Part shown: positions 3,904-29,405 of the stretch, one piece after another | How positions within the stretch are numbered: the stretch's first letter is position 1 | Layout of the letters: each line of letters begins with the position of its first letter | Assembly: GCA_000025185.1 (NCBI GenBank) | Contig: CP001848.1 | Location: 390,001-422,000, forward strand | From: Pirellula staleyi DSM 6068 | GTDB lineage: Bacteria; Planctomycetota; Planctomycetia; Pirellulales; Pirellulaceae | Reading direction: 5' to 3' | Length of the DNA stretch: 32,000 bases | Notes under the pieces: model-generated | What the model saw: the letters and a program-made list of their open reading frames with translations, nothing else | Databases searched by the model: none | What the model was told of the DNA's origin: nothing | Position numbers and translations under genes: made by a program

Positions 3904-5286
3904 CTATGCCAGCAATTCCGAGATGACACCCGTTTGATCAACGTCCCGCAGGCCGGGATCGGGCACGCCAAACTTGTCGCGAGGTTTGCCAACCGCATGC
4001 AGGAGCGTGCAATAAAGATTGGCCATCGTGCGGTGGTTTGGGGTCCCGTAGTTGGGGAACTGCAGATAGCGTCCGTCAGTCTTCAGTTTGCCACCGAGAT
4101 TCCCGATCAGTACTACCGGCCATTCATAGAGGCTGGGGTGATGCCCTTCGCCGGAATCACTTAGATAGACGAGCAGCGTATTGTCCAGCATAGTGCCGGA
4201 ACCTTCAGGTGTATTTTGTAGCTTAGCGACCAGTCCGGCGATGAGCCTGGTATGGAAACGCCGCAACTCAACGAAGCAGTCCTCTGACGATTCCCTTCCA
4301 TAAGCATTGCCGTGACCGATCCCATGGAGATCGGGAATGTTAAATTCGGGAAACTTACCGAACTGCTGCCCCCCTCCACCACTCGCCAGCGTGACGACGT
4401 TCGTCAACCCAGCCACGAGTGCCGCGCCGGCGATTTCAAACTGCGCCTCGAGAATCAAACTGGAGACACTGGTCGTCGCCTTTTCACCGAGCTTGGGAAC
4501 GACCTTCTTGAGCTCCTCGGTTTTGGCGACGAGTTCGCGTTGTCGATTGTGCAAGGTCTCGAATGCTTCGAGATAACGATCAAACTTCTGACGCTCGTCG
4601 CCCACCAACTCGGCGCGGGAGCGGCGGACATCATCGGCCATGAAGTCGAGCAGATTCGTGCGACGGTCAAAGGCAGCTTTGCCTGAGCCCTCGGCCACGC
4701 TGCCAAAGAGCGATGCAAAAGCTAAGTCGGGCGAGCAGATAATTGGGACTTCCTTGCCCGGACCGGCTGCCGAGACTCGATAATTCATGGGCCCCTCCCC
4801 GCCATTGAGTCCCACAGCGACATGAGAAAACGTGCCGGGTAAGGCCTCGCCAATCGCTGAGTCGATGGTTTGCATCATCGCTCCCCGGTTCGCTCCATAG
4901 GCACCGAGTGCCCCATGATTGGCCGAATGGTCACTGATGGCGATGCGTCCTGAGAGACCTTGAACGAAAGCCATCCGATCTTTAAACGGCGTGAGCGGCT
5001 CTAAGGCCGAATGCAACTCCTTGTCGTGCAGCGTGAGTTCTTCCAGCTTGTCGTTGGTAGGTCGTTCATTTCGGCCATCGGGCCGACGTTTGACACCCAC
5101 AGGCACAAGATGATTGGGATTCAAGCCGTTGCTTTGGACGACGAAGACAACTCGTTTGCGGAGCGCATGCTGCTCATCACCGGCGGCGTGTGCCGCGAGC
5201 TGTGCGAGGATCGGTGACAGCAGTGTAGCCCCAGCGCCGAGGGTGATCCCCTTGAGCAAGCTGCGACGTGTTAGTTCGGTGCTCAT
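3904..5286 (-). CDS. DUF1552 domain protein with Tat signal
   Basis: The N-terminus is MSTELTRRSLLKGITLGAGATLL (twin-arginine type). Family-typical blocks are VFVVQSNG, GHHPSLYEWPVVLIG and NHRTMANLYCTLLHAVG. Its ATG overlaps the upstream stop (ATGA at 5283-5286). Confidence 0.9.
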   Translation of the reverse strand: MSTELTRRSLLKGITLGAGATLLSPILAQLAAHAAGDEQHALRKRVVFVVQSNGLNPNHLVPVGVKRRPDGRNERPTNDKLEELTLHDKELHSALEPLTPFKDRMAFVQGLSGRIAISDHSANHGALGAYGANRGAMMQTIDSAIGEALPGTFSHVAVGLNGGEGPMNYRVSAAGPGKEVPIICSPDLAFASLFGSVAEGSGKAAFDRRTNLLDFMADDVRRSRAELVGDERQKFDRYLEAFETLHNRQRELVAKTEELKKVVPKLGEKATTSVSSLILEAQFEIAGAALVAGLTNVVTLASGGGGQQFGKFPEFNIPDLHGIGHGNAYGRESSEDCFVELRRFHTRLIAGLVAKLQNTPEGSGTMLDNTLLVYLSDSGEGHHPSLYEWPVVLIGNLGGKLKTDGRYLQFPNYGTPNHRTMANLYCTLLHAVGKPRDKFGVPDPGLRDVDQTGVISELLA

Positions 5287-7463
5287 TGTGGGGCTCCCAA
5301 AGTTGTTGGCTGCGGATCAAGAGGTGACGGGGTAGCGCGAAGCAGGAATGAATCTGACGTTAGCAGTGAGACGACAAGAGCCTTGAAACTTCCTCCGCTT
5401 TCCACATAAGAGCGATCGGCTTGTTGCAACGTCCGAGCATCTGCCAGGGTTTCGTTGCGACCTAGGAAGTAGCGGAACGCATGCCGCACAAAGACTTGGC
5501 GCACACGATCCGAATCAGCCAAGCGGAGGACCAGTTCACGCGGATCGCGGACGGTTCCATCGAGCCGCGCATCTCCGCTATTGGCAATCGTTCCGGAGGT
5601 GTCGAGCGCCACTTCGCGAGTTATTGGCCCCAGTTGTTTCCCCTTGTTATCGACGTTTTTCTCGGTAGCTTCGAGGTCGAGCACCGCTTCCGTCGAGCGG
5701 AATCGGCCATAGTGATCGAAGTTCTCCAAGGGCAATCCGAGTTCATCCATTTGCTGATGGCACTTCCAGCACTTCGCATCACGCGTGACGGTAAGTCGAT
5801 CTCGATAGGTGCGATGTTTATCATCGGGAACTTGGGCCACCACGCCAATCGGCAGATCGGGCACGGTTCCTCCGAGCAAGCGTTCTCGAATCCAGCGGCC
5901 GCGGCGAACGACGTCGTTGTCAAAATTCGTGCTCCAGGCGACCAACCAACTTGGTTGCATCAGAATGCCCAGCCTCTGGCCTTCGGGAAGCTCTGTCGGT
6001 TGCTTCTGGGGCCATTGCTGAAAGCCATAAACGGCATCGACGCCTCCGAGCCATTCCGGCTTGTTCTTGGGGTTTTTGTCCGGTGGTGGGATCACATCGA
6101 ACGGCACTCCGACCAGCGGTCGATCGGGTTGGGACTTGTCGACCTTGGTGTTGTAATTCACAAACGAGAGTCGCGTGGTGAGCAATTCACGCAAGACATC
6201 TTTGTCTTGCTCCAGGATATGGAGTACCAGACGATCGGTGTCGCTCACCAATACTTGGGGAACATGCTTGATCTTGTCGGTCGGTTTGTCCTTGAAGACA
6301 TCTGGGGCGCGGTGGTATTCGAAGTACTCTTGGAAAAACCGCAGCAGTCTCGGCTTCTTGATTTTGGGATCATCCAAAATGCGCTTCACATGAGCGGCCA
6401 CCTCTTCCCTGGTGGTTAGTTCACCTTTTTCAGCAGCCTGCATGATGCCGCTTTCTCGACGGTCTCCCAGGGCCAAGCTCAATGCGCGGGCTAATTCCAG
6501 CGGCTTCAGCGCTTGCCGACCGGAATCACCTTCGGTCGCTGCACCGACTTCGGAACGATACATCGCATCGGCACGTAGCAGCACCGCCTGAAGCATCGTC
6601 TTTACGGCGGCGGGGCGATCTCCGTCCGTCGCACATTTTTCATAGAGAGAAAGGAATCGTTCAACTTCGCTGGCATCCGCTTTGCGGCCAATCGCTAAGC
6701 GGAACTGTGTTTGCACTGCGGATTCCAACTGCTCGCGACTCGGCACAAGCGCCGGGTCCATCAGTTTGACGAATTCACCGATGGTGTCGTTCTTGCCCTG
6801 AAGTTTGCCCTCTTTGATCACGTGGGCCGTTTGTCCCGCAACGATGATTTCGGCGTTCCGCAGCAAGACTTCAGTGCTCGGTTCATCAATCGAGTACAAC
6901 TCGGCGAAATCCTTAATGCCGCGTTCGGGAATCACTGTGAACGGCTGAACCAATCCGTCGGCGCGTCCCCGATGCACTTCTCCTACAAAGCCTTTGTAGC
7001 CATCCGGGCTGAGCCGCCACACTCGTGCGGAAGTGGGCGCATTGCCTGTAGCTAGATTGCCGAACAATAACTCGTGTGAGATCAAATTCCCTTGGTTCGG
7101 CAGGGGGAGCCGCTGTTTGCTCGCTTGCAGAGAAAGCCACTCCAGAACCGTGGCTAACTTTTCGCGGGGGATTTGGGGTTCTTCCTCCGGTGGCATGAGT
7201 CCCCCGCGAAGTTGTTCTCGTACCATGTTCCAGCGAGCAAGATCGTTGCTTTCGTTGGTTGACAAATCGTCCAGACGGACGTCACCCTCCTGCTTGTTCG
7301 GGCCGTGACACTTCATGCAGTGCGTCTTGATCACTTGCCTAACAAGAGTGGCATTCGCGTCTTCCGCCGCAATTGCAGCGTGGTGTGTAGGAGCAACTAG
7401 GCACCATGCAACAAAAACGCACGACGAGAAGACGTTACAGACTCTGTTTATGTCGCTGTTCAT
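5283..7463 (-). CDS. Planctomycete CxxCH-motif protein of the DUF1592/DUF1588/DUF1585 family
   Basis: It has a signal peptide and CMKCHGPNKQEGDVRLDDL, a PSCyt-type CxxCH motif. The conserved C-terminal blocks are RRGRWIRERLLGGTVPDLP, CWKCHQQMDELGLPLENFDHYGRFR and FRYFLGRNETLAD. Confidence 0.9.
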   Translation of the reverse strand: MNSDINRVCNVFSSCVFVAWCLVAPTHHAAIAAEDANATLVRQVIKTHCMKCHGPNKQEGDVRLDDLSTNESNDLARWNMVREQLRGGLMPPEEEPQIPREKLATVLEWLSLQASKQRLPLPNQGNLISHELLFGNLATGNAPTSARVWRLSPDGYKGFVGEVHRGRADGLVQPFTVIPERGIKDFAELYSIDEPSTEVLLRNAEIIVAGQTAHVIKEGKLQGKNDTIGEFVKLMDPALVPSREQLESAVQTQFRLAIGRKADASEVERFLSLYEKCATDGDRPAAVKTMLQAVLLRADAMYRSEVGAATEGDSGRQALKPLELARALSLALGDRRESGIMQAAEKGELTTREEVAAHVKRILDDPKIKKPRLLRFFQEYFEYHRAPDVFKDKPTDKIKHVPQVLVSDTDRLVLHILEQDKDVLRELLTTRLSFVNYNTKVDKSQPDRPLVGVPFDVIPPPDKNPKNKPEWLGGVDAVYGFQQWPQKQPTELPEGQRLGILMQPSWLVAWSTNFDNDVVRRGRWIRERLLGGTVPDLPIGVVAQVPDDKHRTYRDRLTVTRDAKCWKCHQQMDELGLPLENFDHYGRFRSTEAVLDLEATEKNVDNKGKQLGPITREVALDTSGTIANSGDARLDGTVRDPRELVLRLADSDRVRQVFVRHAFRYFLGRNETLADARTLQQADRSYVESGGSFKALVVSLLTSDSFLLRATPSPLDPQPTTLGAPQ

Positions 7464-7483: not shown

Positions 7484-7987
7484 TTAATCGGCAACCGAAG
7501 AGGAGGCGATGGGAATCGTGCGCAGGAAATATTCCTGCCAGGCGGTGTTCGGGCCCCCATTCGCCTTCTCGCCAGCATGGGCAATCGTCGTGTGGAACAG
7601 GTCATCGAAACCAGCCCGCTGCGAAGTCCAGCTCTCGCCCCTCGCTGTTGCTTGCAATGGTGCCTGGTCGTCTACTTGGAGCGGTGCTCGCTGCCGAGCG
7701 TCGAGGCGACCTGCGGCCAGTTCAGTGGCACGCTTTTCGAGGAATTTTCGCATCTCGAAAATCTCAAAGATGTCGTCGGTGGTGATGCCAGCCACGTGTG
7801 CGCGGCAGTTGTAATGTCGGTGCACGAGCCCCTCTTTCGCGAGTTGCTGTAAAGCATCGTGAATTGGCATGTGGCTCACTCCAAATTCACGAACAACGCC
7901 CAGTTCGCTTCGCTCAGTTCTCGAAGCAAACTGCCCCGAAAGAAATTCCTTGGAGCAGGCGATGATAAACGGCCTCGCGAAAGCAAC
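7484..7987 (-). CDS. GntR-family (FCD-type) transcriptional regulator; start codon unresolved, possibly a pseudogene
   Basis: The ORF track starts at GTG 7879, which lies inside the winged-HTH. The frame is open upstream to a TGA at 7990-7988. It encodes VAFARPFIIACSKEFLSGQFASRTERSELGVVREFGVSHMPIHDALQQLAKEGLV, a recognisable GntR HTH. No ATG, GTG or TTG occurs in frame between 7987 and 7880. Confidence 0.6.
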   Translation of the reverse strand, partial: VAFARPFIIACSKEFLSGQFASRTERSELGVVREFGVSHMPIHDALQQLAKEGLVHRHYNCRAHVAGITTDDIFEIFEMRKFLEKRATELAAGRLDARQRAPLQVDDQAPLQATARGESWTSQRAGFDDLFHTTIAHAGEKANGGPNTAWQEYFLRTIPIASSSVAD

Positions 7988-8330
7988 TCATTCGAATAAT
8001 CGATAGGACGCTCCGCTGCCGCCCCGACCTTTCGCCGCAGTTAATCTTTTGTTTCCACGGAATCAGGCTTGCCAGCGGAATCGGCTAGACGCAAAACTGC
8101 ATGCACTTTATAAATCGTAGTGAACTGCACAGTGTCTGTCAATCAAAGCGCACTGGCTGTCCGATCCGGCGACGAGAAAGTGAGCTGCACCGCTGCCGAA
8201 GGGAGGCTGTCGGTGCTGTGCCCCCAACGATTCTGGCAATTGCACGTCCGACCGGAAATTAATCCCCCATAATCTCCCCGCATAGCTACGATAGATCAAC
8301 GCTTCGCTTACCCGTCGCCCGTTTTGTTTT

Positions 8331-11300
8331 ATGGATCAGCAGAATGAAGGTCGCTACATGATGGGGACAAAGTTTTCGCTGGTATTGGCTGGGGGGACGT
8401 TTGTCATCGCAATAGCGTCGGTGCTTGCGGAACCACCTAGCGAGCCGACGCAAGCCGCTGCGGCACCGATCGCCGTGAAGACCGACGCTCCCGATGCCGA
8501 CACGGACCAGACTGTCTTGCGCGATAAGGCCATGCGGGTGCTGGAGACTTACTGCTTCTCCTGTCACGGATCGAAGAAACAGCAGGGTGATGTGCGATTC
8601 GATGCGCTGGAGACGATTGATCCTGTCGATCAGCAGAAGCTCTTTGAAAACGCCAAGAGTGCGTTGCACTTGCAAGAGATGCCGCCTGAAGAGGCGAAGC
8701 AGCCGAGCGAGGCGGAGCGTGCGGTTTTGATGCAGTGGCTCGATAGCCAAATCGTTGGCGAGGCGGCGCAGGCGCTGGCGGAGAAGTTACTGCGATTCGA
8801 ATACGGCAATGTCGTTAATCACGACGATCTTTTTTCCGGCAAGTATGCCGACCTCCCCGGCTCCTCGCCCGACCGTCGTTGGCTGATCAGCGAGTACATC
8901 TTCAACGAAAAGGTAAATCGTCTTCTCGACTATCGCCCGACCCGGACCATCTACGGCAAGCAGTATCCAGTCCAGGGCGACAGCGGGATTCACTGGAGCC
9001 CCAAGACCGAACAAGGCAACAAATTCCGCCGGACGATCACCAACCCCTTCCTGCTGCCGAAGAGAGACGGTGTCCGATACTCCAGCCATGATGCGCTCAC
9101 CGCTGGTCACCTGCTGACGATGATCGGCAACGCCAAGATCATCGCAGGCCACATGTCCTCCGAATCAACGATGAAGTCGCAATACCCGGCGATGTATTCG
9201 CTGATGCAAACCGAACTCGAGCAGCGCAGCACGCTGCGCTCACGCGAGCAGTTCCTTTCCACCTACACCTACATGGATCGCCTGCTCAACGATATCTACG
9301 GGCAGCAGCACGCCTCCTTGCTGCCTCCCTTGAAGCGGCTGGATGTGCGGTACCCAGAACCTGTCATGAAGAATGGCAAGGCGTTCATCGAAACCAATCT
9401 AGGCCTGCTCGGGCGGAACGATCTCATCGACCTCACCGCGGTTTACCGAGGCATCCACGCCTATCAGGGTGAAGGGGTCGAGTACGACCAGATCATCGAG
9501 CAGTGTGAGCGGGAATGGTTCATGGAAGGGGTCGTCGAATCGCGCATTCATAACCGGATCTCGATGATGAAGGCCTTTTATGTTCTCTGGGACATGGAAG
9601 GGATATTCAAGATCGCATCGAGCAGCCAGTATTCCCGGCCCAAGTATGTGCCGCTCAGTGATGCGGAAATGGCCGTGATCGTCCAGTCGATTCAAAAGCA
9701 CCGCCAGCAGGGAGACACCTATCAGGACATCATCAACAAGTGCATGGCCGACTGGGAGGCTTCGTTCAAGGGACAGCAGCATGCAAACTCTGCGTCCGAC
9801 CATACGCTCTTGTCGCAAATGGTGATCCAGCTCTACGAGAAGATTTTTGAGCGTAAGCCGACCCAGGACGAAATCGAGAACAACCTCTCGATGCTCCAGT
9901 CATTCATGGGCAGACTCGGGCGCCAAGCGGCGATCGCCAAGCTGATCGAGTCGATGATCCTGAATACGGAGTTCGCTTACCGCTATGAATATGGCCAAGG
10001 TGAGGCAGACCAGCACGGCCGAAGGATTTTGTCCCCGCGTGATGCGAGCTACGCGCTGGCTTACGCATTGACCGATTCGAGCCCCGATGCAGGGCTGGTC
10101 AAAGCGGTGCAAGAAGGTCGTTTGAGCACGCGCGAGGACTACGAGCGCGAAGTCCGGCGGATGCTGAAAAAACGCGACGTTTGGACCATCATCGACGAGG
10201 GGGTGCAAGCTGCCAATCTCAACGCCAGCGTGACCAACCAGCCAATCCGCAAGCTTCGGTTTTTCCGCGAGTTTTTCGGCTACCCCAAGGCGATGAGTGT
10301 CTTCAAGGACGATGTTCGTTTCGGTGCCGGTCCCCATGAACCAGCGCTCAGCCGGTTGATCGACGAAGCGGACATGCTGGTGGAATACGTCCTCCACAAG
10401 GATAAACAGGTCTTCGAAGAACTATTGACCACCGACCAATTCTATGTGTTTCACTCCGGCGATCCGAAGGAGATGCAGGCCGGTTCTGATCGATACCACT
10501 CGGTTTACAACTACTTCAAAAAATACGACTGGAGGAATTGGACCCCAGCTGATTGGTACGAGCACAAGCCCTTCTATTCGCAAAACGAAGCCCTGAAGTC
10601 GCACAAGGTGGTGGCGGGTAACGAGATTGTGAATGCCTCGCAGGACGATCCGAAACTCGGCAGCTATTTCAAGGCTTTCCTCGTGCAGATGGAGAACCTC
10701 GAGAGACGATTTGGTGAAGGCCAGCAGAATGCCGTCCCTTATCACACGTTTGGCCGGGGCTTTTGGCGACCCAACGTGGTGCTCGGCAGAACCGGCCAGC
10801 AGATGCGTGGTCATGAGGCGACCAGTTACTGGAACATCGACTGGCGCAGCTGGGACTACCCGACTCAGCAACCAGTATCGATCCCCAACCGCAAAGGAAT
10901 CCTCACCCACCCGGCCTGGCTGATCGCCTACTCACAAAACCTCGAGACCGACCCGATTCACCGTGGAAAATGGGTCCGAGAGAAACTGCTAGCCGGAACA
11001 ATTCCCGACGTGCCGATCACCGTGGATGCTGTCATCCCCCCCGATCACACGAAGACGATGCGTCAACGGATGGAAGGCCGCACGGGAGCCGAGTTCTGCT
11101 GGCGATGCCACCAGAAGATGGACCCGCTCGGTTTCCCCTTCGAGCTTTACGACGACTTTGGTCGATTCCGGACCGAGGAGAACCTCGAACACCCCGAGAA
11201 CCTTATCAAACCCGCTCCGAAACACAATGCTCCCGTCGAAGAGCTTACGTTCGGGGCCCACCTGCCGGTCTATAAGACGCTGCCGGTTGATGCCCGTGGT

Positions 11301-20923: not shown

Positions 20924-21133
20924 TTAGTTCCACTGATAGGGCTTGTTCGCTACGAGTTCCAGACGCTTGCGGGCGGCTACTTGCTTCTGGGCCAGCACAT
21001 AGGCCTGCTGATAGATACTCGCCTCGGCTGTTGGCAAACAGCATGACACTGTAACGAATCCCCCCTTGGTGATCGCGACATTTTCCGGAGTCAATCGACT
21101 GGCAACGATGCTGTGAGCAGGTAGGCGATTCAT
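20924..21133 (-). CDS. Hypothetical small protein (69 aa)
   Basis: This is an ORF only, with reasonable codon usage and no family recognised. It lies in a gene-poor stretch. Confidence 0.3.
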   Translation of the reverse strand: MNRLPAHSIVASRLTPENVAITKGGFVTVSCCLPTAEASIYQQAYVLAQKQVAARKRLELVANKPYQWN

Positions 21134-21553: not shown

Positions 21554-21847
21554 TCATATTTGATAGTCAATGCCGCACTTCGACATAATCTGCTGCCATT
21601 CTTCTTTGGCTAAACGCTCAGTCACTTGCTTTTGCGCTTGCTCGTGGGCGGCCATCACAAGGTTCATTCCCCAGCTGCCGTCAGTTGGGCTAGATGCCAT
21701 CGGTGGCGGGTTTGGTGCCGCAAATCCCGGCAAATAGCACACGGCGAACCCACGCCATTGCAGCGGAGATTCTGGGATCTTCTTTGATTTTTCTTGGTCC
21801 ATATAGGCTCGTATTCGGTTGGTCGACATCCTAGCCCAACCTCCCAT
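21554..21847 (-). CDS. Hypothetical small protein (91-97 aa)
   Basis: This is an ORF only. The internal ATG at 21829 has GGAGG about 10 nt upstream. A 10-bp inverted repeat (21483-21492 / 21529-21538) lies just downstream of the stop. Confidence 0.35.
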   Translation of the reverse strand: MGGWARMSTNRIRAYMDQEKSKKIPESPLQWRGFAVCYLPGFAAPNPPPMASSPTDGSWGMNLVMAAHEQAQKQVTERLAKEEWQQIMSKCGIDYQI

Positions 21848-21984: not shown

Positions 21985-22014
21985 TTGACGAAATTACTTC
22001 GACATCATTAGTGT
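21985..22014 (+). promoter_or_regulatory. Candidate sigma-70-like promoter for the Cys-rich gene, overlapped by a 7-bp inverted repeat
   Basis: TTGACG (21985-21990), an 18-nt spacer, then TAGTGT (22009-22014). The inverted repeat GACATCA-n6-TGATGTC (22001-22020) spans the -10 element. This is a pattern match only. Confidence 0.25.
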
Positions 22015-22184
22015 GATGTCCTAACGCTGCCGACCCGTCTATCGGGAGGCCTCTTTTAATGCCCCCCGGCGTTGCTGACTGAACCTGTTCAGAGGCACGC
22101 GGATCAGCCTGTTGATCATCCTTGCTTGCCCAGACTCATTTTCGAGTGGCTCTGCGATTGATCCAGGTGAAAGGAGTCCCCTCC

Positions 22185-22634
22185 GTGTCGACCGCAATCA
22201 TGATGGAACGTTTCGCTGCTGGAACCACCACCACGGCAACCCCAGCAGCTCCGACCACAGTGCCAGCTAACTGGTGCGTGGTTCCACGCTGCAAAATGAC
22301 CTTCGAGAAGTGTGCCGGTGGTTTCAAGATCCACTGCAAATGCGATGACAGCGTTGCTGCTGCCACCCTGCAGAACCTCTGCAACATGCTCGCCAGCGGA
22401 CTTTGCAGCTGCTGCTGCACTTGGAACGGCATGGTCATGTGCAACGTGAATCTCTGCTGTGGCAACTGCACCTGCGAAGCCACCAAAGATGGCGTTTGCA
22501 TCAGCTGCTGTAGTGGCGATCAGAGATGCTGCGACATGCTCCAAGCTTGCTGCGAAGCCCTTAGCTGCTGCTGCGAAAGCGGATGCTGCTGCTATGTTTG
22601 CTTTAACGGCACCCCTTGCTGCTGCTGTTGCTAA
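22185..22634 (+). CDS. Hyper-cysteine-rich protein of unknown family (34 Cys, C-terminal CCCCC)
   Basis: AAAGGAG lies 8 nt upstream of GTG 22185; the alternative start is ATG 22200. The sequence is non-repetitive, Cys-rich and uses C-ending codons like the neighbouring genes. There is no signal peptide. An internal duplication is detectable at a 57-aa offset. Confidence 0.7.
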   Translation: MSTAIMMERFAAGTTTTATPAAPTTVPANWCVVPRCKMTFEKCAGGFKIHCKCDDSVAAATLQNLCNMLASGLCSCCCTWNGMVMCNVNLCCGNCTCEATKDGVCISCCSGDQRCCDMLQACCEALSCCCESGCCCYVCFNGTPCCCCC

Positions 22635-22656: not shown

Positions 22657-22670
22657 CCGAGCTTGCTCGG
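22657..22670 (+). terminator. Short GC hairpin downstream of the Cys-rich gene
   Basis: CCGAGC-tt-GCTCGG (effectively a 5-bp stem with a 4-nt loop) lies 22 nt after TAA. The T-containing tail is not immediately adjacent. Confidence 0.3.
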
Positions 22671-23593
22671 CCAAGTCTTTCATCTTCAAGTGCCGAGTCC
22701 TACCTGACCTGCAGGAGGACTCGTGTCACTTTCTTGACGCATGCTGCGTCTGCGCCACTCGGGTGCACTTGGCGAAATCTTTCGCACCTACCCGCCACCT
22801 TTCGCCGTGATATTTACTATCGCCAGACTATTTCACGGCCGCTGCACTCCTCGATAACGGCAATCTGCAATTGGATACTGAAAAAAAGAAGCAAAGTCGC
22901 TTAATGCAAGACAAAATGATCGATTTGATCGCGATACTAAACATTTCGTATCTTTGGCACGCCACTCGCTACAACCGTCATCCGATGCAGTAAAAACCTG
23001 CTGATCGACAGATGCAGAAGCGACTAGCCAGTCGTGTCACCCACCCGGCATTTGCAAACCCGGTATGCAGCGGCACGAGCAGTTTTTTCAGCGATCGCCG
23101 ATTACCAGTCAGACTGCGTCACACGGATGTAAGTTCCGAACCATCGGACCAAAAATTCTCTACTAGTTGCGTTGCTCACTGGATTTTACCGGAGGCGATC
23201 GCGGCGACTCTCCTTTGGAGTCATCGCATGTTTGCTGTTCTCACTCGCCATCCAGGCACACTGGATCGACTGGCCGCTTCACTTCAGAAGCTGCCACTCG
23301 CCTCACGCGGCGCTCACTCACTCGCCAGCCGCTGTTGTTTCGCCTCGCTTACCCTGAGCCCTGCTACCAGGCCAGGTCGGTGTTGTTGTTAGAGGCCATC
23401 GCGCCTCCCCAAATCACCGGTGGAGTCACTCTCTGACTTCACCTCTGACTGACCTCATCGACTTCTCCAGCCTAACGTCCCAGCGTTCGCCATCCCTCGA
23501 TGGTGGATCAGCAAACGACAAGCTGTGGATCGATGATCAGTCTCCCAGCAACTCCCCAGGCTCCAGCAAAATTTAATCCGGAAATCACCCATC

Positions 23594-24561: not shown

Positions 24562-25023
24562 ATGAATGCTATGACGCCTACTCACGGATCACTACCGCTA
24601 CACCGACAGACTCGGCAATTCCTACCAGCATGGCTACTGCTGGCAACCTTGCTTGCCACTGGCTGCGACTCGGGTCCGGCAGTTTATCCCATTCATGGAA
24701 AACTGACGGTTTCCTCCGGTGATCCCTCGCCTCTGGCAGGTCACAGCATCGAGATCGTGAGTCGGGAAAACAATCAGATTCGATCGTTTGCCTCGATTAA
24801 CCCCGATGGAACCTTTGAGATCGAGTCGCTGATCGAAGGCAAACTTGTTAAAGGCGCCTTGCCTGGCGACTATGCCGGAAGAGTGATTTTTACAGACGAT
24901 CATCCGGCCCAGCGCCATCAAGCCATGCAACTTGTTCCTCCTAAGTATCTCAACATTGACTCTTCGAATCTCTCTTTAAAGGTTCCAAGCGATTCCGATA
25001 TTGAGTGGAACCTCGTTCCTTAA
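24562..25023 (+). CDS. Putative lipoprotein, small beta-sandwich (carboxypeptidase-regulatory-like) type
   Basis: A hydrophobic leader ends in LLATGC, which is lipobox-like. The mature part, VYPIHGKLTV...INPDGTFEIESL, resembles transthyretin/CarboxypepD_reg-like domains. It lies directly downstream of the DUF1559 gene. Confidence 0.65.
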   Translation: MNAMTPTHGSLPLHRQTRQFLPAWLLLATLLATGCDSGPAVYPIHGKLTVSSGDPSPLAGHSIEIVSRENNQIRSFASINPDGTFEIESLIEGKLVKGALPGDYAGRVIFTDDHPAQRHQAMQLVPPKYLNIDSSNLSLKVPSDSDIEWNLVP

Positions 25024-25163: not shown

Positions 25164-27860
25164 ATGCTTGTTTCTCTAATATCCAAGTGCTCTCGAGTTG
25201 CACGGCGAAGAGCGGTACGCAACATCGAGATACTAGTAGCTGTTGCTATCAGCATGGCCTGCAGCGGCATCGCGCTCGCCATTGAAGCCCCCGAGGTCGA
25301 TCCACAAAAGATCGAGTTTTTCGAAAAGGAGGTTCGGCCGATCCTGGTGAGCAATTGCTACAACTGCCATTCGGCTGATAACAAAGCAGCTGGCGGGTTG
25401 CGTGTCGACGACCATCTGGGGCTGCTGGCGGGCGGTAGTAGTGGCCCGGCAATTGTCCCTGGCAAGCCTGATGAAAGCATTTTGATTCAGGCGATTCGCT
25501 ATGAGGGGTTTGAGATGCCCCCGAAGAAGCGACTCGCGGACGATGAAGTGGCTACTCTCGTGAAATGGGTGGCGGATGGTGCTGTATGGCCCGTCGAGCA
25601 GATTGCCACTTCGATCGGCAAACCGAACGAGCAATACGACAAACTAAAGACGGAGCACTGGGCTTGGCAGCCGCTGGCGCAAGCGAACGTCCCATCGGTT
25701 CAAAACACCGCTTGGCCTCGCACCGAGATTGACCACTTTATTCTCGCTAAGCTCGAAGCTGCCAACCTCAGTCCCGTCGAGGATGCGGACAAGCTGTCCC
25801 TCCTTCGACGCGTTACGTTCGACCTCACTGGACTTCCTCCCACACCTGAAGAAATCGATGCCTATGTCGCCGACGAATCGGCAAACGCCTTTGAGAAAGT
25901 GGTCGATCGACTCCTGTCTTCACCAGCCTATGGCGAGCGATGGGGCCGCCATTGGCTCGACATTGCCCGCTATGGCGAATCGACCGGTTCGGCTCGCAAC
26001 GTCCCTTATCCTCATGCCTGGCGCTACCGCGACTATGTCATCAAGTCGATCGGTGAAGACAAACCCTACGATCAGTTCCTAAAGGAGCAAATTGCCGGTG
26101 ACTTGTTGCCCGCAATCTCCCCAACGCAGAAGGCGGAGCAACTCACGGCGACAGGTTTTCTGGCACTTGGCGTGAAGGATGTGAATCAACGCTTTAAAGT
26201 TCGCTTCATCATGGACAACGTCGATGAACAGATCGACACAGTGACACGAAGCGTGCTCGGACTTACTGTCAGCTGTGCTCGTTGCCACGATCATAAGTTC
26301 GATCCGATTCCCACAGCCGACTACTATGCGCTGGCCGGCATTTTCACCAGCACCGATTTGTGTGCCGGCGTGCGAAACAAAATGGGTGGCGGCGGATTGG
26401 ACTACTACGACTCGGCGATGCTTATTCAAGTGGGCGTAGCGACTGGCGAGAAGGCCCATGTCACGGCTCAAGTGGAAGAGCTTCAGGCAAAAGTCGAAGC
26501 GGCTAAGTCTGAATTCGAACGGCTGCGTGACTCAGCTGAAGGAGAAGAAAAAGCTCCCAACGGTCGCCCCAAACGCCAAGTGGCGCGACAGAAGCTCAAT
26601 CGGCTTCAGCAAGAACTTTTGGCGCTCACCGATCCGGCAACTCAGGTCGATGTCGCCCACGGTGTCCGCGACGCCAAGCAGATTGCCGACACGCAAGTGC
26701 GCATCCGCGGCGAAGCTGAACGGATCGGACCGGTCGTCCCACGTGGTTTTCTGTCCCTCGTGAATGTTCCAGATGCTCGCCCTATGAACACCTCGCAGAG
26801 TGGCCGCTTGGAACTCGCCGAGTGGCTCACCAGCAGTCAGAATCCGCTCACCTCGCGAGTGATTGCCAATCGAGTGTGGCACTACTTGCTTGGCAAGGGA
26901 TTGGTGCAAAGCGTCGACAACTTTGGTGTGACGGGCGACACACCTTCGCATCCTGAATTGCTCGACCATCTTGCTGCGAAGTTCGTTGCTGATGGGTGGT
27001 CGCTCAAGAAGGCAATTCGAAGCGTCGTCCTCTCGCGTGCTTATCAGCTTAGCGCTGCTGCGGGCGATTCGCAGATGAGTGTCGACCCAGCCAACAGGCT
27101 CGTTTGGCGTCATTCGCCTCGTCGACTTGAAGCGGAAGAACTGCGCGACGCGATGCTCGCCGTCGCCAGTTCGCTTGACGTCAAGAATCCAGGGGCGTCG
27201 CCAGCAGCAGAGCTCAAGATGATGGAGATTCGCAACAATGGACCTGAAGCTGCCAAACTTTCCGACCTCGCGCTGGCTAGCAAGCATCGCAGCATCTACT
27301 TGCCATTGGTACGAGGTATCGTTCCCACTTCTCTCGGCGTCTTCGACTTCGCAGAGCAAGGGATGGTAACTGGTTCGCGCGATGTCACCACGGTCTCGAC
27401 GCAGGCTCTTTACTTGCTTAACGATCCGCTCGTAAGGCGTCAATCGCTCGTGCTTGCCGATCAGTTGCTTGCCGATAGCACACTATCAGATGAAGCTCGA
27501 CTGTCTGTCGTCTATCGACGCACCCTTGGCCGCACTCCTTCGAGCGAGGAGCTTCTTCGAGCTACCGAGTTTCTCGATTCTTATGAGCAAGTCTGGCTCG
27601 CCGCAAAGAGCCAAGCTTCTGCCGACGCGCCGGAAGTTGCAGTCGATCAACCAGCAGAAACAACTGCCGATGCGGCGACTGCTAACACGAATGCTGCTGC
27701 TAACGCCACAGCAAATGCCATTGTCGATCCCGACAACGTCGATCAAACCGACCTGACGGTGCGAAACGATTCGGTCGAGGCTGCAACTAGCAAATCAGCT
27801 GCTCTCGCAGCGTTCGTTCAAGCGATTTTTGGATCAGCTGAATTTCGCTACGTGAAATAG
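25164..27860 (+). CDS. PSCyt1/DUF1549(PSCyt2)/DUF1553(PSD1) protein
   Basis: FFEKEVRPILVSNCYNCHS is the PSCyt1 CxxCH motif. IDHFILAKLEAANLSP...LLRRVTFDLTGLPPTPEEI is DUF1549-like. CARCHDHKFDPI and RVIANRVWHYLLGKGLV...FG are DUF1553-like. Confidence 0.92.
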   Translation: MLVSLISKCSRVARRRAVRNIEILVAVAISMACSGIALAIEAPEVDPQKIEFFEKEVRPILVSNCYNCHSADNKAAGGLRVDDHLGLLAGGSSGPAIVPGKPDESILIQAIRYEGFEMPPKKRLADDEVATLVKWVADGAVWPVEQIATSIGKPNEQYDKLKTEHWAWQPLAQANVPSVQNTAWPRTEIDHFILAKLEAANLSPVEDADKLSLLRRVTFDLTGLPPTPEEIDAYVADESANAFEKVVDRLLSSPAYGERWGRHWLDIARYGESTGSARNVPYPHAWRYRDYVIKSIGEDKPYDQFLKEQIAGDLLPAISPTQKAEQLTATGFLALGVKDVNQRFKVRFIMDNVDEQIDTVTRSVLGLTVSCARCHDHKFDPIPTADYYALAGIFTSTDLCAGVRNKMGGGGLDYYDSAMLIQVGVATGEKAHVTAQVEELQAKVEAAKSEFERLRDSAEGEEKAPNGRPKRQVARQKLNRLQQELLALTDPATQVDVAHGVRDAKQIADTQVRIRGEAERIGPVVPRGFLSLVNVPDARPMNTSQSGRLELAEWLTSSQNPLTSRVIANRVWHYLLGKGLVQSVDNFGVTGDTPSHPELLDHLAAKFVADGWSLKKAIRSVVLSRAYQLSAAAGDSQMSVDPANRLVWRHSPRRLEAEELRDAMLAVASSLDVKNPGASPAAELKMMEIRNNGPEAAKLSDLALASKHRSIYLPLVRGIVPTSLGVFDFAEQGMVTGSRDVTTVSTQALYLLNDPLVRRQSLVLADQLLADSTLSDEARLSVVYRRTLGRTPSSEELLRATEFLDSYEQVWLAAKSQASADAPEVAVDQPAETTADAATANTNAAANATANAIVDPDNVDQTDLTVRNDSVEAATSKSAALAAFVQAIFGSAEFRYVK

Positions 27861-27897: not shown

Positions 27898-27921
27898 GAA
27901 GCGACTTAGTGAAGTCGCTTC
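27898..27921 (+). other. Perfect 10-bp stem / 4-nt loop hairpin between the DUF1553 and DUF1501 genes
   Basis: GAAGCGACTT-agtg-AAGTCGCTTC starts 38 nt after the TAG at 27858-27860. It has no U-tract. The ORF-track GTG start at 27909 sits in its loop. Confidence 0.5.
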
Positions 27922-28001
27922 GACCACCAACCCCAACTACCGACACATCGCTCGGCTACAAAAAATGTCAGCTGCGCGATCATTTGCCAAGGATACCTTC
28001 C

Positions 28002-29405
28002 ATGCTGTCGCAATTCATCACTCAACATTCCAGCTTCCTCATCTCGCGTCGCGATGCACTGCGAAGCGCGGGGGCAGGCTTCGGCTATCTCGCACTAGCG
28101 GGACTGCTGGGAGCGAACGCCCCTCGACTTGCCTCGGGTAGCGAGCCACCTTCGGTCAATCCCGGGCCTCTTGCTCCGAAAGAGTCTCACTTTCCTGCGA
28201 AGGCGAAGCGCGTGATCTTCTTGTTCATGCAAGGCTGCATCTCGCAAATGGACACCTGGGAATACAAGCCCAAGCTGCAAGCCTCCGATGGTCAGGTTGG
28301 TCCTGGTGGCGGAACGCTCACCGCATCGAAATTCAAGTTTGCCCAGCATGGCGAAACGGGAACTTGGGTCAGTGAGCTGTTTCCAAATCTGGCCAAGCAG
28401 GTCGATAAGTTCTGTTTTCTACGCGGACTGCACACCGATACACCAGCGCACCCACAAGCGGTCATTCAACTTCACACCGGTGCTGCCATTGCGTCCCTCA
28501 CACGCCCTTCGATGGGGGCTTGGCTGACCTATGGACTTGGCACCGAAAATCAAGATCTTCCTGGCTACATCACCATCAATCCTCCACCGAACTTTGGCGG
28601 TGCAGTGAACTACGGTAGCGCATTCCTACCAGCGCATTACCAAGGGACAAAGATCAACGATCAAGGCTATGTGCCGAATCTCAAGGCGACAACGGCAAGC
28701 GACCTGCAGCGCCGACAGCTTGACCTGCTGCAGTCGATGAACAAAGACCTCGCCCGCGATCCAGCTGCCCCTACCGAACTCGATGGCGTGATCGAGTCGT
28801 ATGAACTGGCATTCAAGATGCAGGGAAAAGTGCCAGAATTACTCGACATTTCGCAAGAACCGCAGCATGTGCTCGATGCCTATGGTGTCAAGCCGGGACC
28901 CGCAGGAAGCTTTGCGCGACAATGCTTGATGGCCCGTCGCTTGAGCGAAGCGGGGGTGCGATTTGTGGAGATTTGCCAGCCAGGCTGGGATCATCACAAC
29001 AACTTGCATAAGGGGCTCATTAACGGCTGCGCGATGACCGATCAGCCCTCGGCCGCACTGCTGGCAGATCTCGAGCAACGCGGCTTGCTCGAAGATACGC
29101 TCGTGATTTATGGCAGCGAGTTTGGTCGACTTCCAACTTCGCAAGGAGTGGATGGTCGCGACCATAACATCACCGGCTACACCATGTGGCTCGCTGGCGC
29201 TGGAGTGAAAAAAGGATTCTCCTACGGAGCAACCGACGACGTGGGCATTCATGCGGTCGATGGCCGAATGCACACCAACGACTTCCACGCCACGCTGCTC
29301 GCGTTCTTGGGGCTCGACCACGAAAAACTGACGTACAAATACGCAGGTCGCAATTTCCGCCTCACCGATGTTGCCGGTCAGGTGGTGAAAGAGATTTTTG
29401 CCTAA
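28002..29405 (+). CDS. DUF1501 domain protein (sulfatase-like fold) with Tat signal
   Basis: I preferred ATG 28002, with AAGGA 8 nt upstream. It gives MLSQFITQHSSFLISRRDALRSAGAGFGYLALAG (twin-arginine). Family blocks are GWDHHNNL, GSEFGRLP...DGRDHN and NDFHATLLAFLGLDHEKLTY. Confidence 0.92.
   Translation: MLSQFITQHSSFLISRRDALRSAGAGFGYLALAGLLGANAPRLASGSEPPSVNPGPLAPKESHFPAKAKRVIFLFMQGCISQMDTWEYKPKLQASDGQVGPGGGTLTASKFKFAQHGETGTWVSELFPNLAKQVDKFCFLRGLHTDTPAHPQAVIQLHTGAAIASLTRPSMGAWLTYGLGTENQDLPGYITINPPPNFGGAVNYGSAFLPAHYQGTKINDQGYVPNLKATTASDLQRRQLDLLQSMNKDLARDPAAPTELDGVIESYELAFKMQGKVPELLDISQEPQHVLDAYGVKPGPAGSFARQCLMARRLSEAGVRFVEICQPGWDHHNNLHKGLINGCAMTDQPSAALLADLEQRGLLEDTLVIYGSEFGRLPTSQGVDGRDHNITGYTMWLAGAGVKKGFSYGATDDVGIHAVDGRMHTNDFHATLLAFLGLDHEKLTYKYAGRNFRLTDVAGQVVKEIFA

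Follow-up and report, generated by a model that had tools for sequence, protein, structure and literature searches.

The described systems closest to the one considered here are the bacterial metallothioneins SmtA/BmtA, the Csp1/Csp3 (DUF326) proteins, the sulfur-rich storage proteins of plant seeds, the polycysteine leader open reading frames (ORFs) of mycobacteria, and the OscA-like proteins of the DUF2292/YezD group. We set against them a gene for a hyper-cysteine protein from Pirellula staleyi DSM 6068, which lies in a stretch of 32,000 nucleotides (nt) of contig CP001848.1 (assembly GCA_000025185.1, positions 390,001 to 422,000 of the forward strand). This whole stretch is called the window below, and coordinates count from its first letter. 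An earlier note, made from the letters of the window, had described the product as an orphan built of a tandem duplication and had suggested that it is a metal-thiolate or sulfur-storage protein.

Like SmtA/BmtA, the P. staleyi protein is small, predicted to be cytoplasmic, and very rich in cysteine; its gene is accompanied by a divergent small gene (SmtB in the metallothionein system), and binding of soft metals would be expected if these are present. However, there is no match to the metallothioneins in sequence, profile (Pfam Metallothio_Pro), or fold; the cysteines occur as CC and CCC clusters, the CxC/CxxC pattern being absent, and there is a single histidine; the partner is not of the ArsR family; and the shared regulon is one of sulfate rather than metal. 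Further, the metallothionein adopts a short metal-dependent zinc-finger-like fold, whereas an ordered alpha/beta domain of about 120 residues is predicted here. The parallel with Csp1/Csp3 is that of a stable scaffold with many cysteines apparently in its interior, as suggested by columns that are hydrophobic in Cys-poor relatives and by heptad-spaced pairs. Unlike these proteins, the predicted structure has eight strands and two helices rather than a four-helix bundle, there is neither a DUF326 match nor a CxxxC pattern, copper genes are lacking nearby, and Met-rich sisters exist. Hence, the separation from both the metallothionein and the Csp patterns that was drawn in the earlier note holds at the level of profiles and of the model.

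The closest functional analogy is offered by plant seed storage proteins, namely, the Cys-rich beta- and gamma-zeins, the Met-rich delta-zeins, and the 2S albumins, whose Cys-rich and Met-rich versions interchange and balance each other as sulfur sinks (PMC3420316). The Cys-rich and Met-rich clades described below would be a functional parallel, with no homology; the seed proteins are eukaryotic and oxidized in protein bodies, whereas the family studied here is bacterial and predicted to be cytoplasmic. In mycobacteria, polycysteine short ORFs serve as cysteine-responsive attenuators of cysteine biosynthesis operons (bioRxiv 10.1101/834739), and the present gene resembles them in having runs of Cys codons in a sulfur metabolism locus. 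Unlike them, it has 149 codons, a conserved folded product, a strong Shine-Dalgarno sequence, and usually no same-strand gene downstream; hence, the Cys-rich gene is itself not a leader ORF. Finally, OscA is listed among sulfur homeostasis genes (PMC10433965). An OscA-like DUF2292 gene often neighbors the Cys-rich gene and immediately precedes the operon-internal copies of the RNA motif described below; it encodes a different protein, which serves as a marker of the regulon but leaves the Cys-rich protein unexplained.

The protein family is undescribed, as are its partner and the RNA motif. Taking the genomic comparisons together, from which we infer the function, we consider it probable that the hyper-cysteine protein works in sulfur homeostasis. 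More specifically, and at somewhat less than even odds (a probability of about 0.45), we propose that it is a cysteine/methionine sink-and-reserve protein of a sulfur regulon, the synthesis of which is gated by the cysteine supply.

The gene and its family

22185 to 22634, plus strand: coding sequence of the hyper-cysteine protein, 149 amino acids plus stop, GTG start (ORF and composition, homologs, frame test)
22170 to 22177, plus strand: Shine-Dalgarno sequence AAAGGAGT, 8 nt ahead of the GTG, kept as GAAAGGAGT at similar spacing in nearly all homologous loci
21985 to 21990 (TTGACG) and 22009 to 22014 (TAGTGT), plus strand: tentative promoter, read from the sequence, giving a 5' untranslated region (UTR) of ~165 nt
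22657 to 22687, plus strand: terminator-like hairpin CCGAG-CTTG-CTCGG with a T-rich tail, 23 nt past the stop, read from the sequence and not listed by the scan

The ORF claimed in the earlier note, from GTG 22185 to TAA 22634, is found in the sequence with the composition given for it: there are 34 cysteines (30 TGC and 4 TGT codons), 23 of which fall in the last 59 residues, three CCC runs (residues 76-78, 128-130, and 134-136), and a CCCCC C terminus (residues 145-149). Cysteine and methionine together make up 28% of the residues, and the calculated pI is 5.2 (family median, 5.8). Two starts are available, GTG 22185 (149 amino acids) and ATG 22200 (144 amino acids). The N terminus typical of the family, MSSAxxLER, lines up with VSTAIMMER of the GTG-start translation, and GAAAGGAGT is found 7-8 nt 5' of the start codon in nearly all homologous loci; hence, GTG 22185 is the true start. 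In the window, the GGAG of the Shine-Dalgarno sequence may pair with the CUCC directly before the GTG (22172-22184, plus strand, within GGAGUCCCCUCC), which would mask the ribosome-binding site; this small hairpin is seen in the window only, the other loci being without it. The tentative promoter is proposed by analogy with the conserved TTGACG-N17-TAGACT of the Pirellula clade, and a consensus scan did not report it. The terminator-like hairpin is consistent with a monocistronic transcript of the gene. As had been stated earlier, there is no signal peptide, h-region, or transmembrane segment in the window protein, the N-terminal hydropathy of which is low (maximum 15-residue Kyte-Doolittle value of 0.61 in the first 50 amino acids). 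Likewise, no signal peptide, lipobox, or transmembrane segment was seen among more than 140 family members, and the protein is predicted to be cytoplasmic.

The protein is no orphan. A search of 5.8 billion clustered proteins recovered 141 full-length homologs of ~150-160 amino acids (50-74% identity, E-values down to 5e-63), all annotated as "hypothetical" and, wherever the source is named, from Planctomycetota. A profile search of 1.84 billion cluster representatives gave only 182 matches, and the family is therefore small and restricted. On scanning one genome per species, relatives were detected in 173 genomes from Planctomycetaceae, Pirellulales, Lacipirellulaceae, Gemmataceae, and Isosphaeraceae. 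The carriers available in culture are Planctomicrobium sp. SH661 and SH664 and Anatilimnocola sp. NA78.

Two metagenome contigs (L088 and L089) are 97.7% identical to the window across 3-4 kb. Their copies of the gene show 2 differences in 450 nt (one synonymous change and one R-to-K replacement) and the TGC tracts are free of indels, whereas the flanking intergenic DNA shows 37-39 differences (about 2.3%); the coding sequence is thus under purifying selection. Gene calling on these contigs picked an antisense Ala-rich ORF instead (L088, 5873-6103; L089, 1144-1509; equivalent to 22135-22365 and 22135-22500 of the window, minus strand). Given such calls on the two closest relatives, annotation of the family in public data is probably incomplete. 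Sense and antisense frames have the wobble position in common, such that codon position tests cannot separate them, and the quality of substitutions was therefore compared. Identity among homologs is 0.61 in the sense frame versus 0.52 in the antisense frame, the mean BLOSUM62 score of replacements is -0.12 versus -1.16, and stop codons interrupt the antisense frames of 57-100% of the homologs. The sense frame is the coding frame, and the contention of the earlier note that the ORF is genuinely coding is borne out.

A leader RNA shared with sulfate acquisition genes

22026 to 22104, plus strand: two-hairpin leader RNA motif in the 5' UTR, with hairpin 1 at 22029 to 22050 and hairpin 2 at 22069 to 22100, the latter with an extra outer stem (covariance model R1)
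22131 to 22155, plus strand: third hairpin of the leader, located 3' of the motif and 5' of the ribosome-binding site (RNAfold of -75 to -15 and of the whole leader)

The motif was found via conserved blocks in the upstream regions of the family; a global MAFFT alignment of these regions was unusable, and motif anchoring with a covariance model (R1) was used in its place. Both hairpins share the design 5'-GCY-GA-C[stem-loop]G-A-GGC-3'. Among the R1 matches, the window copy ranks first (68.8 bits, E-value of 7.5e-14, 940 kb searched). R1 matches with an E-value below 0.01 were obtained in 54 of 87 sources, each just upstream of the Cys-rich gene. A further 11 lie on the other strand, between the OscA-like (DUF2292) gene and the BON/lipoprotein/DUF1559 genes of sulfate operons (L014, L015, L026, L046, L048, L056, L060, L065, L071, L077, and L079). 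The Pirellula, Gemmataceae/Isosphaeraceae, and Met clades lack the motif.

Covariation supports the proposed structure. Among the 23 seed sequences, the specified structure pairs 87.7% of the cells, as against at most 51.5% with slid partners; the corresponding values for 73 aligned matches are 89.6% and at most 59%, the pairing in this second alignment being somewhat inflated by its having been fitted to R1. In the same 73 matches, 16 of the 18 pairs change on both sides, and there are 111 compensatory cells versus 23 +/- 7 in shuffles, a count reached by none of 500 shuffles. The abundant strand-specific G-U pairs, together with the slid controls, argue for an RNA structure rather than a DNA palindrome, and the minimum-free-energy fold of the single sequence recovers both hairpins. 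Rfam 15 returned nothing at an E-value of 1 or less for the leader in the window; across 12 loci it gave nothing at the gathering score except one tRNA and one group II intron elsewhere. In one metagenome-assembled genome (MAG), a group II intron domain (RF00029, 68 bits; L046, 4995-5071, plus strand) is situated ~1 kb upstream of the Cys-rich gene.

Hairpins occur at the position of the third hairpin in most loci; they are of the GGAA-N-TTCC type in three clades, and other stems are found elsewhere. A GGAA-N(2-8)-TTCC inverted repeat ~60-90 nt upstream of the start was counted 24 times in the 200 nt before the start versus 2-3 times per 200-nt bin elsewhere (L008, L009, L017, L021, L030, L031, L035, L037, L038, L044, L045, L050, L053, L057-L059, L061, L063, L069, and L083).

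An independent exact-pattern scan of public metagenomes, which samples the commonest motif variant only, yielded 38 motif sites (L094-L131). Of these, 15 are directly upstream of an ORF of the Cys-rich family, 20 are in the context sbp-cysT-cysW-cysA-DUF2292-[motif], and 3 are unclassifiable. On the 3' side of the operon motif there is either a Porin_O_P or Porin_5 gene ~28 nt on or a BON-lipoprotein-DUF1559 set. Since the motif is thus found in two settings only, namely, ahead of Cys-rich family genes and in sulfate operons, the Cys-rich gene shares a cis-regulatory RNA with sulfate acquisition. One copy (L026, 10886-10965, minus strand) precedes a gene for a 948-residue protein with a planctomycete-cytochrome-type N-terminal region rather than a porin or BON gene.

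Linkage to the sulfate importer and short poly-Cys ORFs

The importer genes in question pass the NCBIfam cutoffs for Sbp, CysT, CysW, and CysA; the DUF2292 neighbor resembles OscA (E-value of 1e-9) at a score under the NCBIfam OscA cutoff. The importer or its DUF2292 gene is located at most 6 kb from the Cys-rich gene in 8 of 23 lineages (defined at 70% identity), in three arrangements. In a single locus (L084), the Cys-rich gene immediately precedes sbp in the same orientation; the genes downstream of it are otherwise usually convergent or unrelated. No metal-related gene (sensor, efflux pump, or chaperone) was found among the ~125 loci examined.

In the Pirellula clade (L050, L057, L058, and L061, ~4130-5840, plus strand), the Cys-rich gene is separated from the divergent sbp-cysTWA operon by a gene for a sigma-54-dependent activator. 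This clade lacks the leader motif, and a conserved CGGCGCGC-N-CTTGCA element is seen ~256 nt upstream of the Cys-rich start. A scan for sigma-54 promoters gave no general signal, with a candidate in this clade only. Linkage to an extracytoplasmic function sigma factor was also considered and set aside, being confined to one clade.

Short ORFs with Cys runs often follow the operon-internal motif copies, behind GGAGTC-N5-6-ATG. Examples are MNCCCCCRGSHT (L117, ~5795-5833), MRSSHVIFCCCC (L056, ~10750-10795, minus strand), and MRRSLVIFCSCC (L060, ~7950-8000, minus strand); a further ORF begins with MECCCC (L077), and others end with RRACCCAR (L123), FACCLAACCSA (L111), and GCGGCRACCRAK (L121). By analogy with the mycobacterial ORFs, we consider these ORFs, which are placed between the motif and the BON/lipoprotein genes, to be candidate cysteine-responsive attenuators.

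Cys-rich, Met-rich, and Cys-poor clades

The members of the main clade have 28-36 cysteines per ~155 amino acids. The same profile detects proteins with 30 Cys and 32 Met, with 18 Cys and 55 Met in 172 amino acids, and with 5 Cys and 55 Met in 169 amino acids. The last two types belong to a Met-rich sister clade with up to 33% Met (P0147, P0151, P0190, P0248, and P0142; loci L087, L092, and L093, with the partner gene nearby), in which the disordered linker is Met-rich too, including Met/Gly-rich N-terminal tails; this clade reaches a Phycisphaerales MAG. A high sulfur content, as judged from the sequences, thus appears as the trait common to the family, which supports a reading in terms of sulfur.

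Cys-poor relatives (P0162, P0181, P0185, P0257, P0155, P0132, and P0216) display three different conserved C-terminal extensions without Pfam matches. These extensions were evaluated as fused versions of the partner and rejected (partner hidden Markov model [HMM] E-value above 1). P0216 has two tandem copies of the domain, and its neighbors, a metallo-beta-lactamase-fold gene and a STAND NTPase, are uninformative. Searches of Pfam, NCBIfam, PADLOC, and PDB with the Cys-poor and extended relatives gave nothing.

Predicted fold and cysteine columns

22185 to 22283, plus strand: N-terminal region, residues 1-33, with a conserved MSSAxxLER-type tip followed by a variable Ala/Thr/Pro/Gly linker that is predicted to be disordered (predicted local distance difference test [pLDDT] below 50 at residues 1-29)
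22284 to 22454, plus strand: module 1, residues 34-90, predicted beta-beta-alpha-beta-beta (strands 35-43, 46-53, 74-80, and 83-90; helix 56-69; pLDDT about 90)
22464 to 22631, plus strand: module 2, residues 94-149, the more Cys-rich copy, predicted beta-beta-alpha-beta-beta (strands 94-99, 103-109, 135-140, and 143-148; helix 113-131)

AlphaFold2, run with 32 sequences, returned a model with a core pLDDT of about 90 and a predicted TM score of 0.70, in which a strand-strand-helix-strand-strand unit occurs twice and the ordered part spans ~120 residues. A tandem duplication of ~57 amino acids had been claimed earlier, and its offset-57 self-alignment is reproduced exactly (T39-C78 versus T96-C135; 13 identities, of which 9 involve residues other than Cys). 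Its significance is modest when judged from this one sequence, as 5 of 300 shuffles also reach 13 identities; however, hhalign matches one half of the family alignment to the other in an unchanged register (E-value of 3.3e-5, probability of 72%, 49 columns), and the model repeats the unit. A Foldseek search of the model against PDB and BFVD gave at best E-values of 0.2-0.5 and TM scores below 0.33. We therefore confidently predict a duplicated beta-beta-alpha-beta-beta fold without a known structural match. At the sequence level, Pfam and NCBIfam hold no family for the protein at E-values of up to 10, PDB sequence and profile searches yielded chance matches only (E-values of 0.06 or more), and the PADLOC anti-phage profiles match neither this protein nor the first partner described below, the second partner having one chance-level match (E-value of 0.013). 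The suggestion that the family is undescribed therefore stands.

Homologs with conserved Cys columns, which the earlier note had proposed to look for, were found: in the 123 sequences of the Cys clade, which overall share just 50-74% identity, Cys is at least 87% conserved at positions 36, 43, 51, 53, 66, 74, 78, 86, 95, 97, 105, 108, 115, 122, 123, 129, 134, 136, 146, and 147. The window protein keeps every invariant column of the family; it has the MSSAxxLER-type N terminus, the PRC motif, the about 20 Cys columns, and the duplicated module. Its Cys residues 91, 109, 128, 145, 148, and 149 are rare in the family, the consensus C terminus being TPVCCGxC. Hence, the terminal CCCCC singled out in the earlier note, though present in the window, is a peculiarity of this lineage.

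At most of these conserved columns, the Cys-poor relatives have Leu, Val, Ile, Phe, or Met in place of Cys; only C36, C51, C136, and C146 persist in them, with C53 and C66 doing so in part. The cysteines show an i/i+2 spacing and, in helix 2, form the heptad-spaced pairs 115/116, 122/123, and 129/130. From this spacing and the hydrophobic residues at the same columns in the Cys-poor relatives, we infer that the cysteines would lie in the interior of the protein. The hyper-Cys clade would, then, have filled the hydrophobic positions of an older scaffold with Cys, and the sister clade appears to have done likewise with Met.

A conserved partner gene

21554 to 21829, minus strand: partner gene 1, 91 amino acids (MSTNRIRAYM...GIDYQI), divergent from the hyper-cysteine gene (partner family HMM)
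20924 to 21133, minus strand: partner family paralog 2, 69 amino acids (...IYQQAYVLAQ...YQWN), with the GF, IYQxAY, and C-terminal WN motifs (HMM E-value of 5.2e-5)

A small unannotated ORF accompanies the hyper-cysteine gene in every long contig inspected, and with an HMM built from 27 such ORFs, members of the family were detected in 75 of 86 loci. The usual position is 300-700 bp upstream on the opposite strand, whereas in the Pirellula/Anatilimnocola group the partner is about 100 bp downstream on the same strand. It also adjoins the Met clade genes and is kept in clades without the leader motif. That the linkage survives rearrangement argues for a two-gene functional unit. Profile searches recovered 88 small proteins, from Planctomycetota only, with family members ranging from 67 to 111 amino acids and sharing the motifs MxxNRIxxY, PxGF, and IY[RQ]xAYExA and a conserved extreme C terminus (WN or D[YF]QI). 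P0271 is 96% identical to partner 1 across the same 91 amino acids, and 17 nt differences in partner 1 between close relatives entail just 4 amino acid changes. Neither partner has a Pfam, NCBIfam, or PDB match, and neither belongs to the ArsR family. AlphaFold predicts two helices for the partner alone, the rest being disordered (pLDDT of 58). Paralog 2 is the more divergent; it is situated 420 bp beyond partner 1 on the same strand, and two copies are also seen in a few other loci (L025 and L068). The earlier view that no maturation, transport, or regulator genes adjoin the locus has thus to be given up in light of this conserved partner, the shared leader RNA, and the recurrent linkage to the sulfate ATP-binding cassette (ABC) importer.

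A proposed sulfur sink and reserve, and its alternatives

Of the two branches of the hypothesis in the earlier note, metal-thiolate or sulfur storage, the genomic contexts favor the second, with the sulfate regulon and the Cys/Met interchange on its side; the metal branch is left without a metal homeostasis gene at the loci. The sink and reserve that we propose would operate as follows. The transcript would come under joint control with sulfate uptake. Nearly one codon in four specifies Cys, such that the protein can be finished only with plentiful charged tRNA-Cys, and its completion would in this manner be self-gated. It would then soak up assimilated sulfur once supply exceeds demand, limiting free cysteine, and constitute a protein-bound reserve that might later be recovered via proteolysis. 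The small helical partner could act as a chaperone, adaptor, or regulator of the Cys-rich protein. This proposal is favored by the shared leader RNA, the importer linkage, the interchange of Cys and Met, the ORFs with runs of Cys codons, and the lack of metal genes among the conserved neighbors.

Several points weigh against it. Chief among these is the conservation of about 20 Cys columns, which is tighter than a compositional store needs and would suit a defined metal-thiolate cluster. If the leader turns genes on in sulfur starvation, making a 23%-Cys protein at that time would be counterintuitive. No protease or mobilization gene is conserved near the Cys-rich gene, the distribution of the family over the 173 species-level genomes is patchy, and 34 cytoplasmic thiols would likely bind Zn or Cu in vivo whatever their purpose. 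We know of no protein sulfur reserve in bacteria, and our literature search retrieved nothing specific on a planctomycete Cys-rich protein, a bacterial sulfur storage protein, or a DUF2292-sulfate link.

The first alternative, which we regard as unlikely, is that a protein of new fold stores or buffers Cu(I), Zn, or Cd as metal-thiolates, by a Csp- or metallothionein-like logic; the sulfate link would then simply reflect the cysteine needed to make the protein. To our knowledge, the characterized bacterial proteins with this much Cys are metal binders. The positional conservation of the Cys columns, their correspondence to Leu, Val, Ile, and Phe in Cys-poor relatives, the heptad-spaced pairs of helix 2, and the predicted cytoplasmic location would all be in keeping with such a store; moreover, Cys and Met are both soft-metal ligands, and the tails of the Met clade are like Met-rich Cu(I) motifs. 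These are offset by the lack of any metallothionein or Csp match in profile or fold, the lone His and the missing CxC/CxxC pattern, the ~125 loci devoid of a metal sensor, efflux pump, or chaperone gene, and a leader RNA that is otherwise common to sulfate uptake genes only. Nor are cytoplasmic metal stores known to us to swap Cys wholesale for Met. Metal stress and the sulfate genes are not unconnected, as silver and tellurite induce oscA, sbp, and cysA in Pseudomonas (PMC10433965), which would fit a metal store.

A more improbable alternative makes the gene a cysteine gauge. Here, translation of the ORF would report on the charging of tRNA-Cys, and the product, with its partner, would in turn exert feedback on the sulfur regulon, for instance, through binding to the leader RNA. 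It is equally improbable, in our estimate, that such a translation-gated gauge sets sulfur acquisition, with the output of a codon-biased ORF being a trans-acting regulator rather than a cis attenuator; if true, this would be a new kind of amino acid sensing. The succession of one leader and then either short poly-Cys ORFs or a long Cys-dense ORF is suggestive in this regard, as are the two protein modules facing two RNA hairpins, the presence of the motif on the gene's own mRNA (which would permit autoregulation), the arrangement directly ahead of sbp in L084, and the divergence of partner and gene, as in many regulator-target pairs. However, the protein is acidic and has no nucleic-acid-binding signature, the usually convergent downstream genes preclude a cis attenuator, the partner persists in clades without the motif, and a very strong Shine-Dalgarno sequence combined with an extreme Cys load suggests bulk synthesis rather than a low-copy regulator.

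The odds are comparably poor for a sacrificial thiol/thioether buffer, co-induced with the derepressed sulfate transporters against oxidants or against toxic oxyanions (selenate, chromate, and tellurite) that enter through them. It would account for the control shared with sulfate uptake, and both Cys and Met are oxidizable. Sulfur starvation is reported to induce antioxidant proteins in Pseudomonas (PMC12581299), and OscA-type genes respond to tellurite and silver (PMC10433965). On the other hand, genes for thioredoxin, methionine sulfoxide reductase, or peroxidase are not among the conserved neighbors, thiols buried in the core, as these appear to be, would be poorly placed to scavenge, and the strict conservation of the Cys columns would go unexplained.

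Even less probable is an exported, disulfide-cross-linked envelope component, comparable to the cystine-rich envelope proteins of planctomycetes and the cysteine-rich outer membrane proteins of chlamydiae, with the partner as its export chaperone. All the other genes behind the motif do encode envelope proteins (porins, BON domain proteins, lipoproteins, and pseudopilins), and the partner is small and helical with a conserved extreme C terminus; but more than 140 members lack any signal peptide, lipobox, or transmembrane segment, secretion genes are not linked, and the Met-rich clade cannot form disulfides. Finally, an artifact, whether as a TGC/GCA microsatellite-like tract or with the antisense Ala-rich ORF as the real gene, to which the calls in L088 and L089 and the shared wobble position might point, is effectively excluded by the better conserved and more conservatively replaced sense translation, the antisense stops in most homologs, the conserved start codon, Shine-Dalgarno sequence, and stop position, the confident AlphaFold model, the invariant tract length, and a single fold profile that spans Cys-rich, Met-rich, and Cys-poor sequences. 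Two further candidates were rejected: a precursor of a ribosomally synthesized and posttranslationally modified peptide, there being no modification or transport genes and a conserved ordered core of 120 residues, and a cargo of encapsulins or microcompartments, there being no such genes nearby and an N-terminal tip of just 9 residues.

Bacteria store carbon, nitrogen, phosphorus, and iron, and we know of no protein store for assimilated sulfur in them. Should the sink-and-reserve proposal be true, the Cys-rich protein would be the first one described in bacteria that is dedicated to sulfur as a sink or a reserve, and it would point to a way in which a toxic overshoot of cysteine is avoided when sulfate uptake is derepressed. 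Whatever the function, there is a Planctomycetota-wide family with a predicted fold lacking a structural match and a conserved small partner. Further, a new covarying leader RNA defines a sulfur regulon comprising the sulfate ABC importer, an OscA-like protein, anion porins, the BON/lipoprotein/DUF1559 envelope genes, and the Cys-rich protein, and candidate poly-Cys leader ORFs are found outside Actinobacteria. Through this regulon, a subset of the very numerous planctomycete DUF1559 genes is also placed in a functional context for the first time.

Downstream genes and other features of the window

23130 to 23204, plus strand: weak second copy of the leader motif (R1, 15.8 bits, E-value of 0.38), with a hairpin-2-like part GCGTTGCTCACTGGATTTTACCGGAGGCGATCGC at 23169-23202
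23228 to 23392, plus strand: upstream ORF of 54 codons ending in RCCC-stop, with GGAGTC-N5-ATG ahead and a layout like that in L056, L060, L077, L111, L117, L121, and L123
23594 to 24529, plus strand: DUF1559 pseudopilin-like gene (Pfam N_methyl plus SBP_bac_10)
24562 to 25023, plus strand: small lipoprotein gene, similar to the lipoprotein of the L015 operon (BLASTP E-value of 3e-7)

The second motif copy, weak on its own, matches in position the operon-internal copies of other genomes. The 54-codon ORF is intact in L088 and L089, with the CCC retained; in two strains that are 97.9% identical over this region, 3 of the 5 differences within the ORF change an amino acid, a substitution pattern that fits a leader peptide. 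Elsewhere, the DUF1559 and lipoprotein pair forms the distal end of sulfate uptake operons, after the motif. Thus, with the weak motif, the GGAGTC element, the Cys-ending ORF, and the DUF1559 and lipoprotein genes downstream, what had been taken for a gene-poor stretch is a compact piece of the sulfur regulon, which holds, in addition, the two partner family genes and the structured leader RNA.

The DUF1559-lipoprotein pair is followed by a PSCyt1/PSCyt2/PSD1 gene (25164-27860) and a DUF1501 gene (27909-29405); we take DUF1501 to belong to the sulfatase/alkaline phosphatase superfamily. These genes might also belong to sulfur acquisition. At the left end of the window, on the plus strand, there are a serine-recombinase-type gene (26-1105; Recombinase plus zinc ribbon) and an IS4/IS5-family DDE transposase gene (1574-2380), mobile element remnants that lie ~20 kb from the locus.

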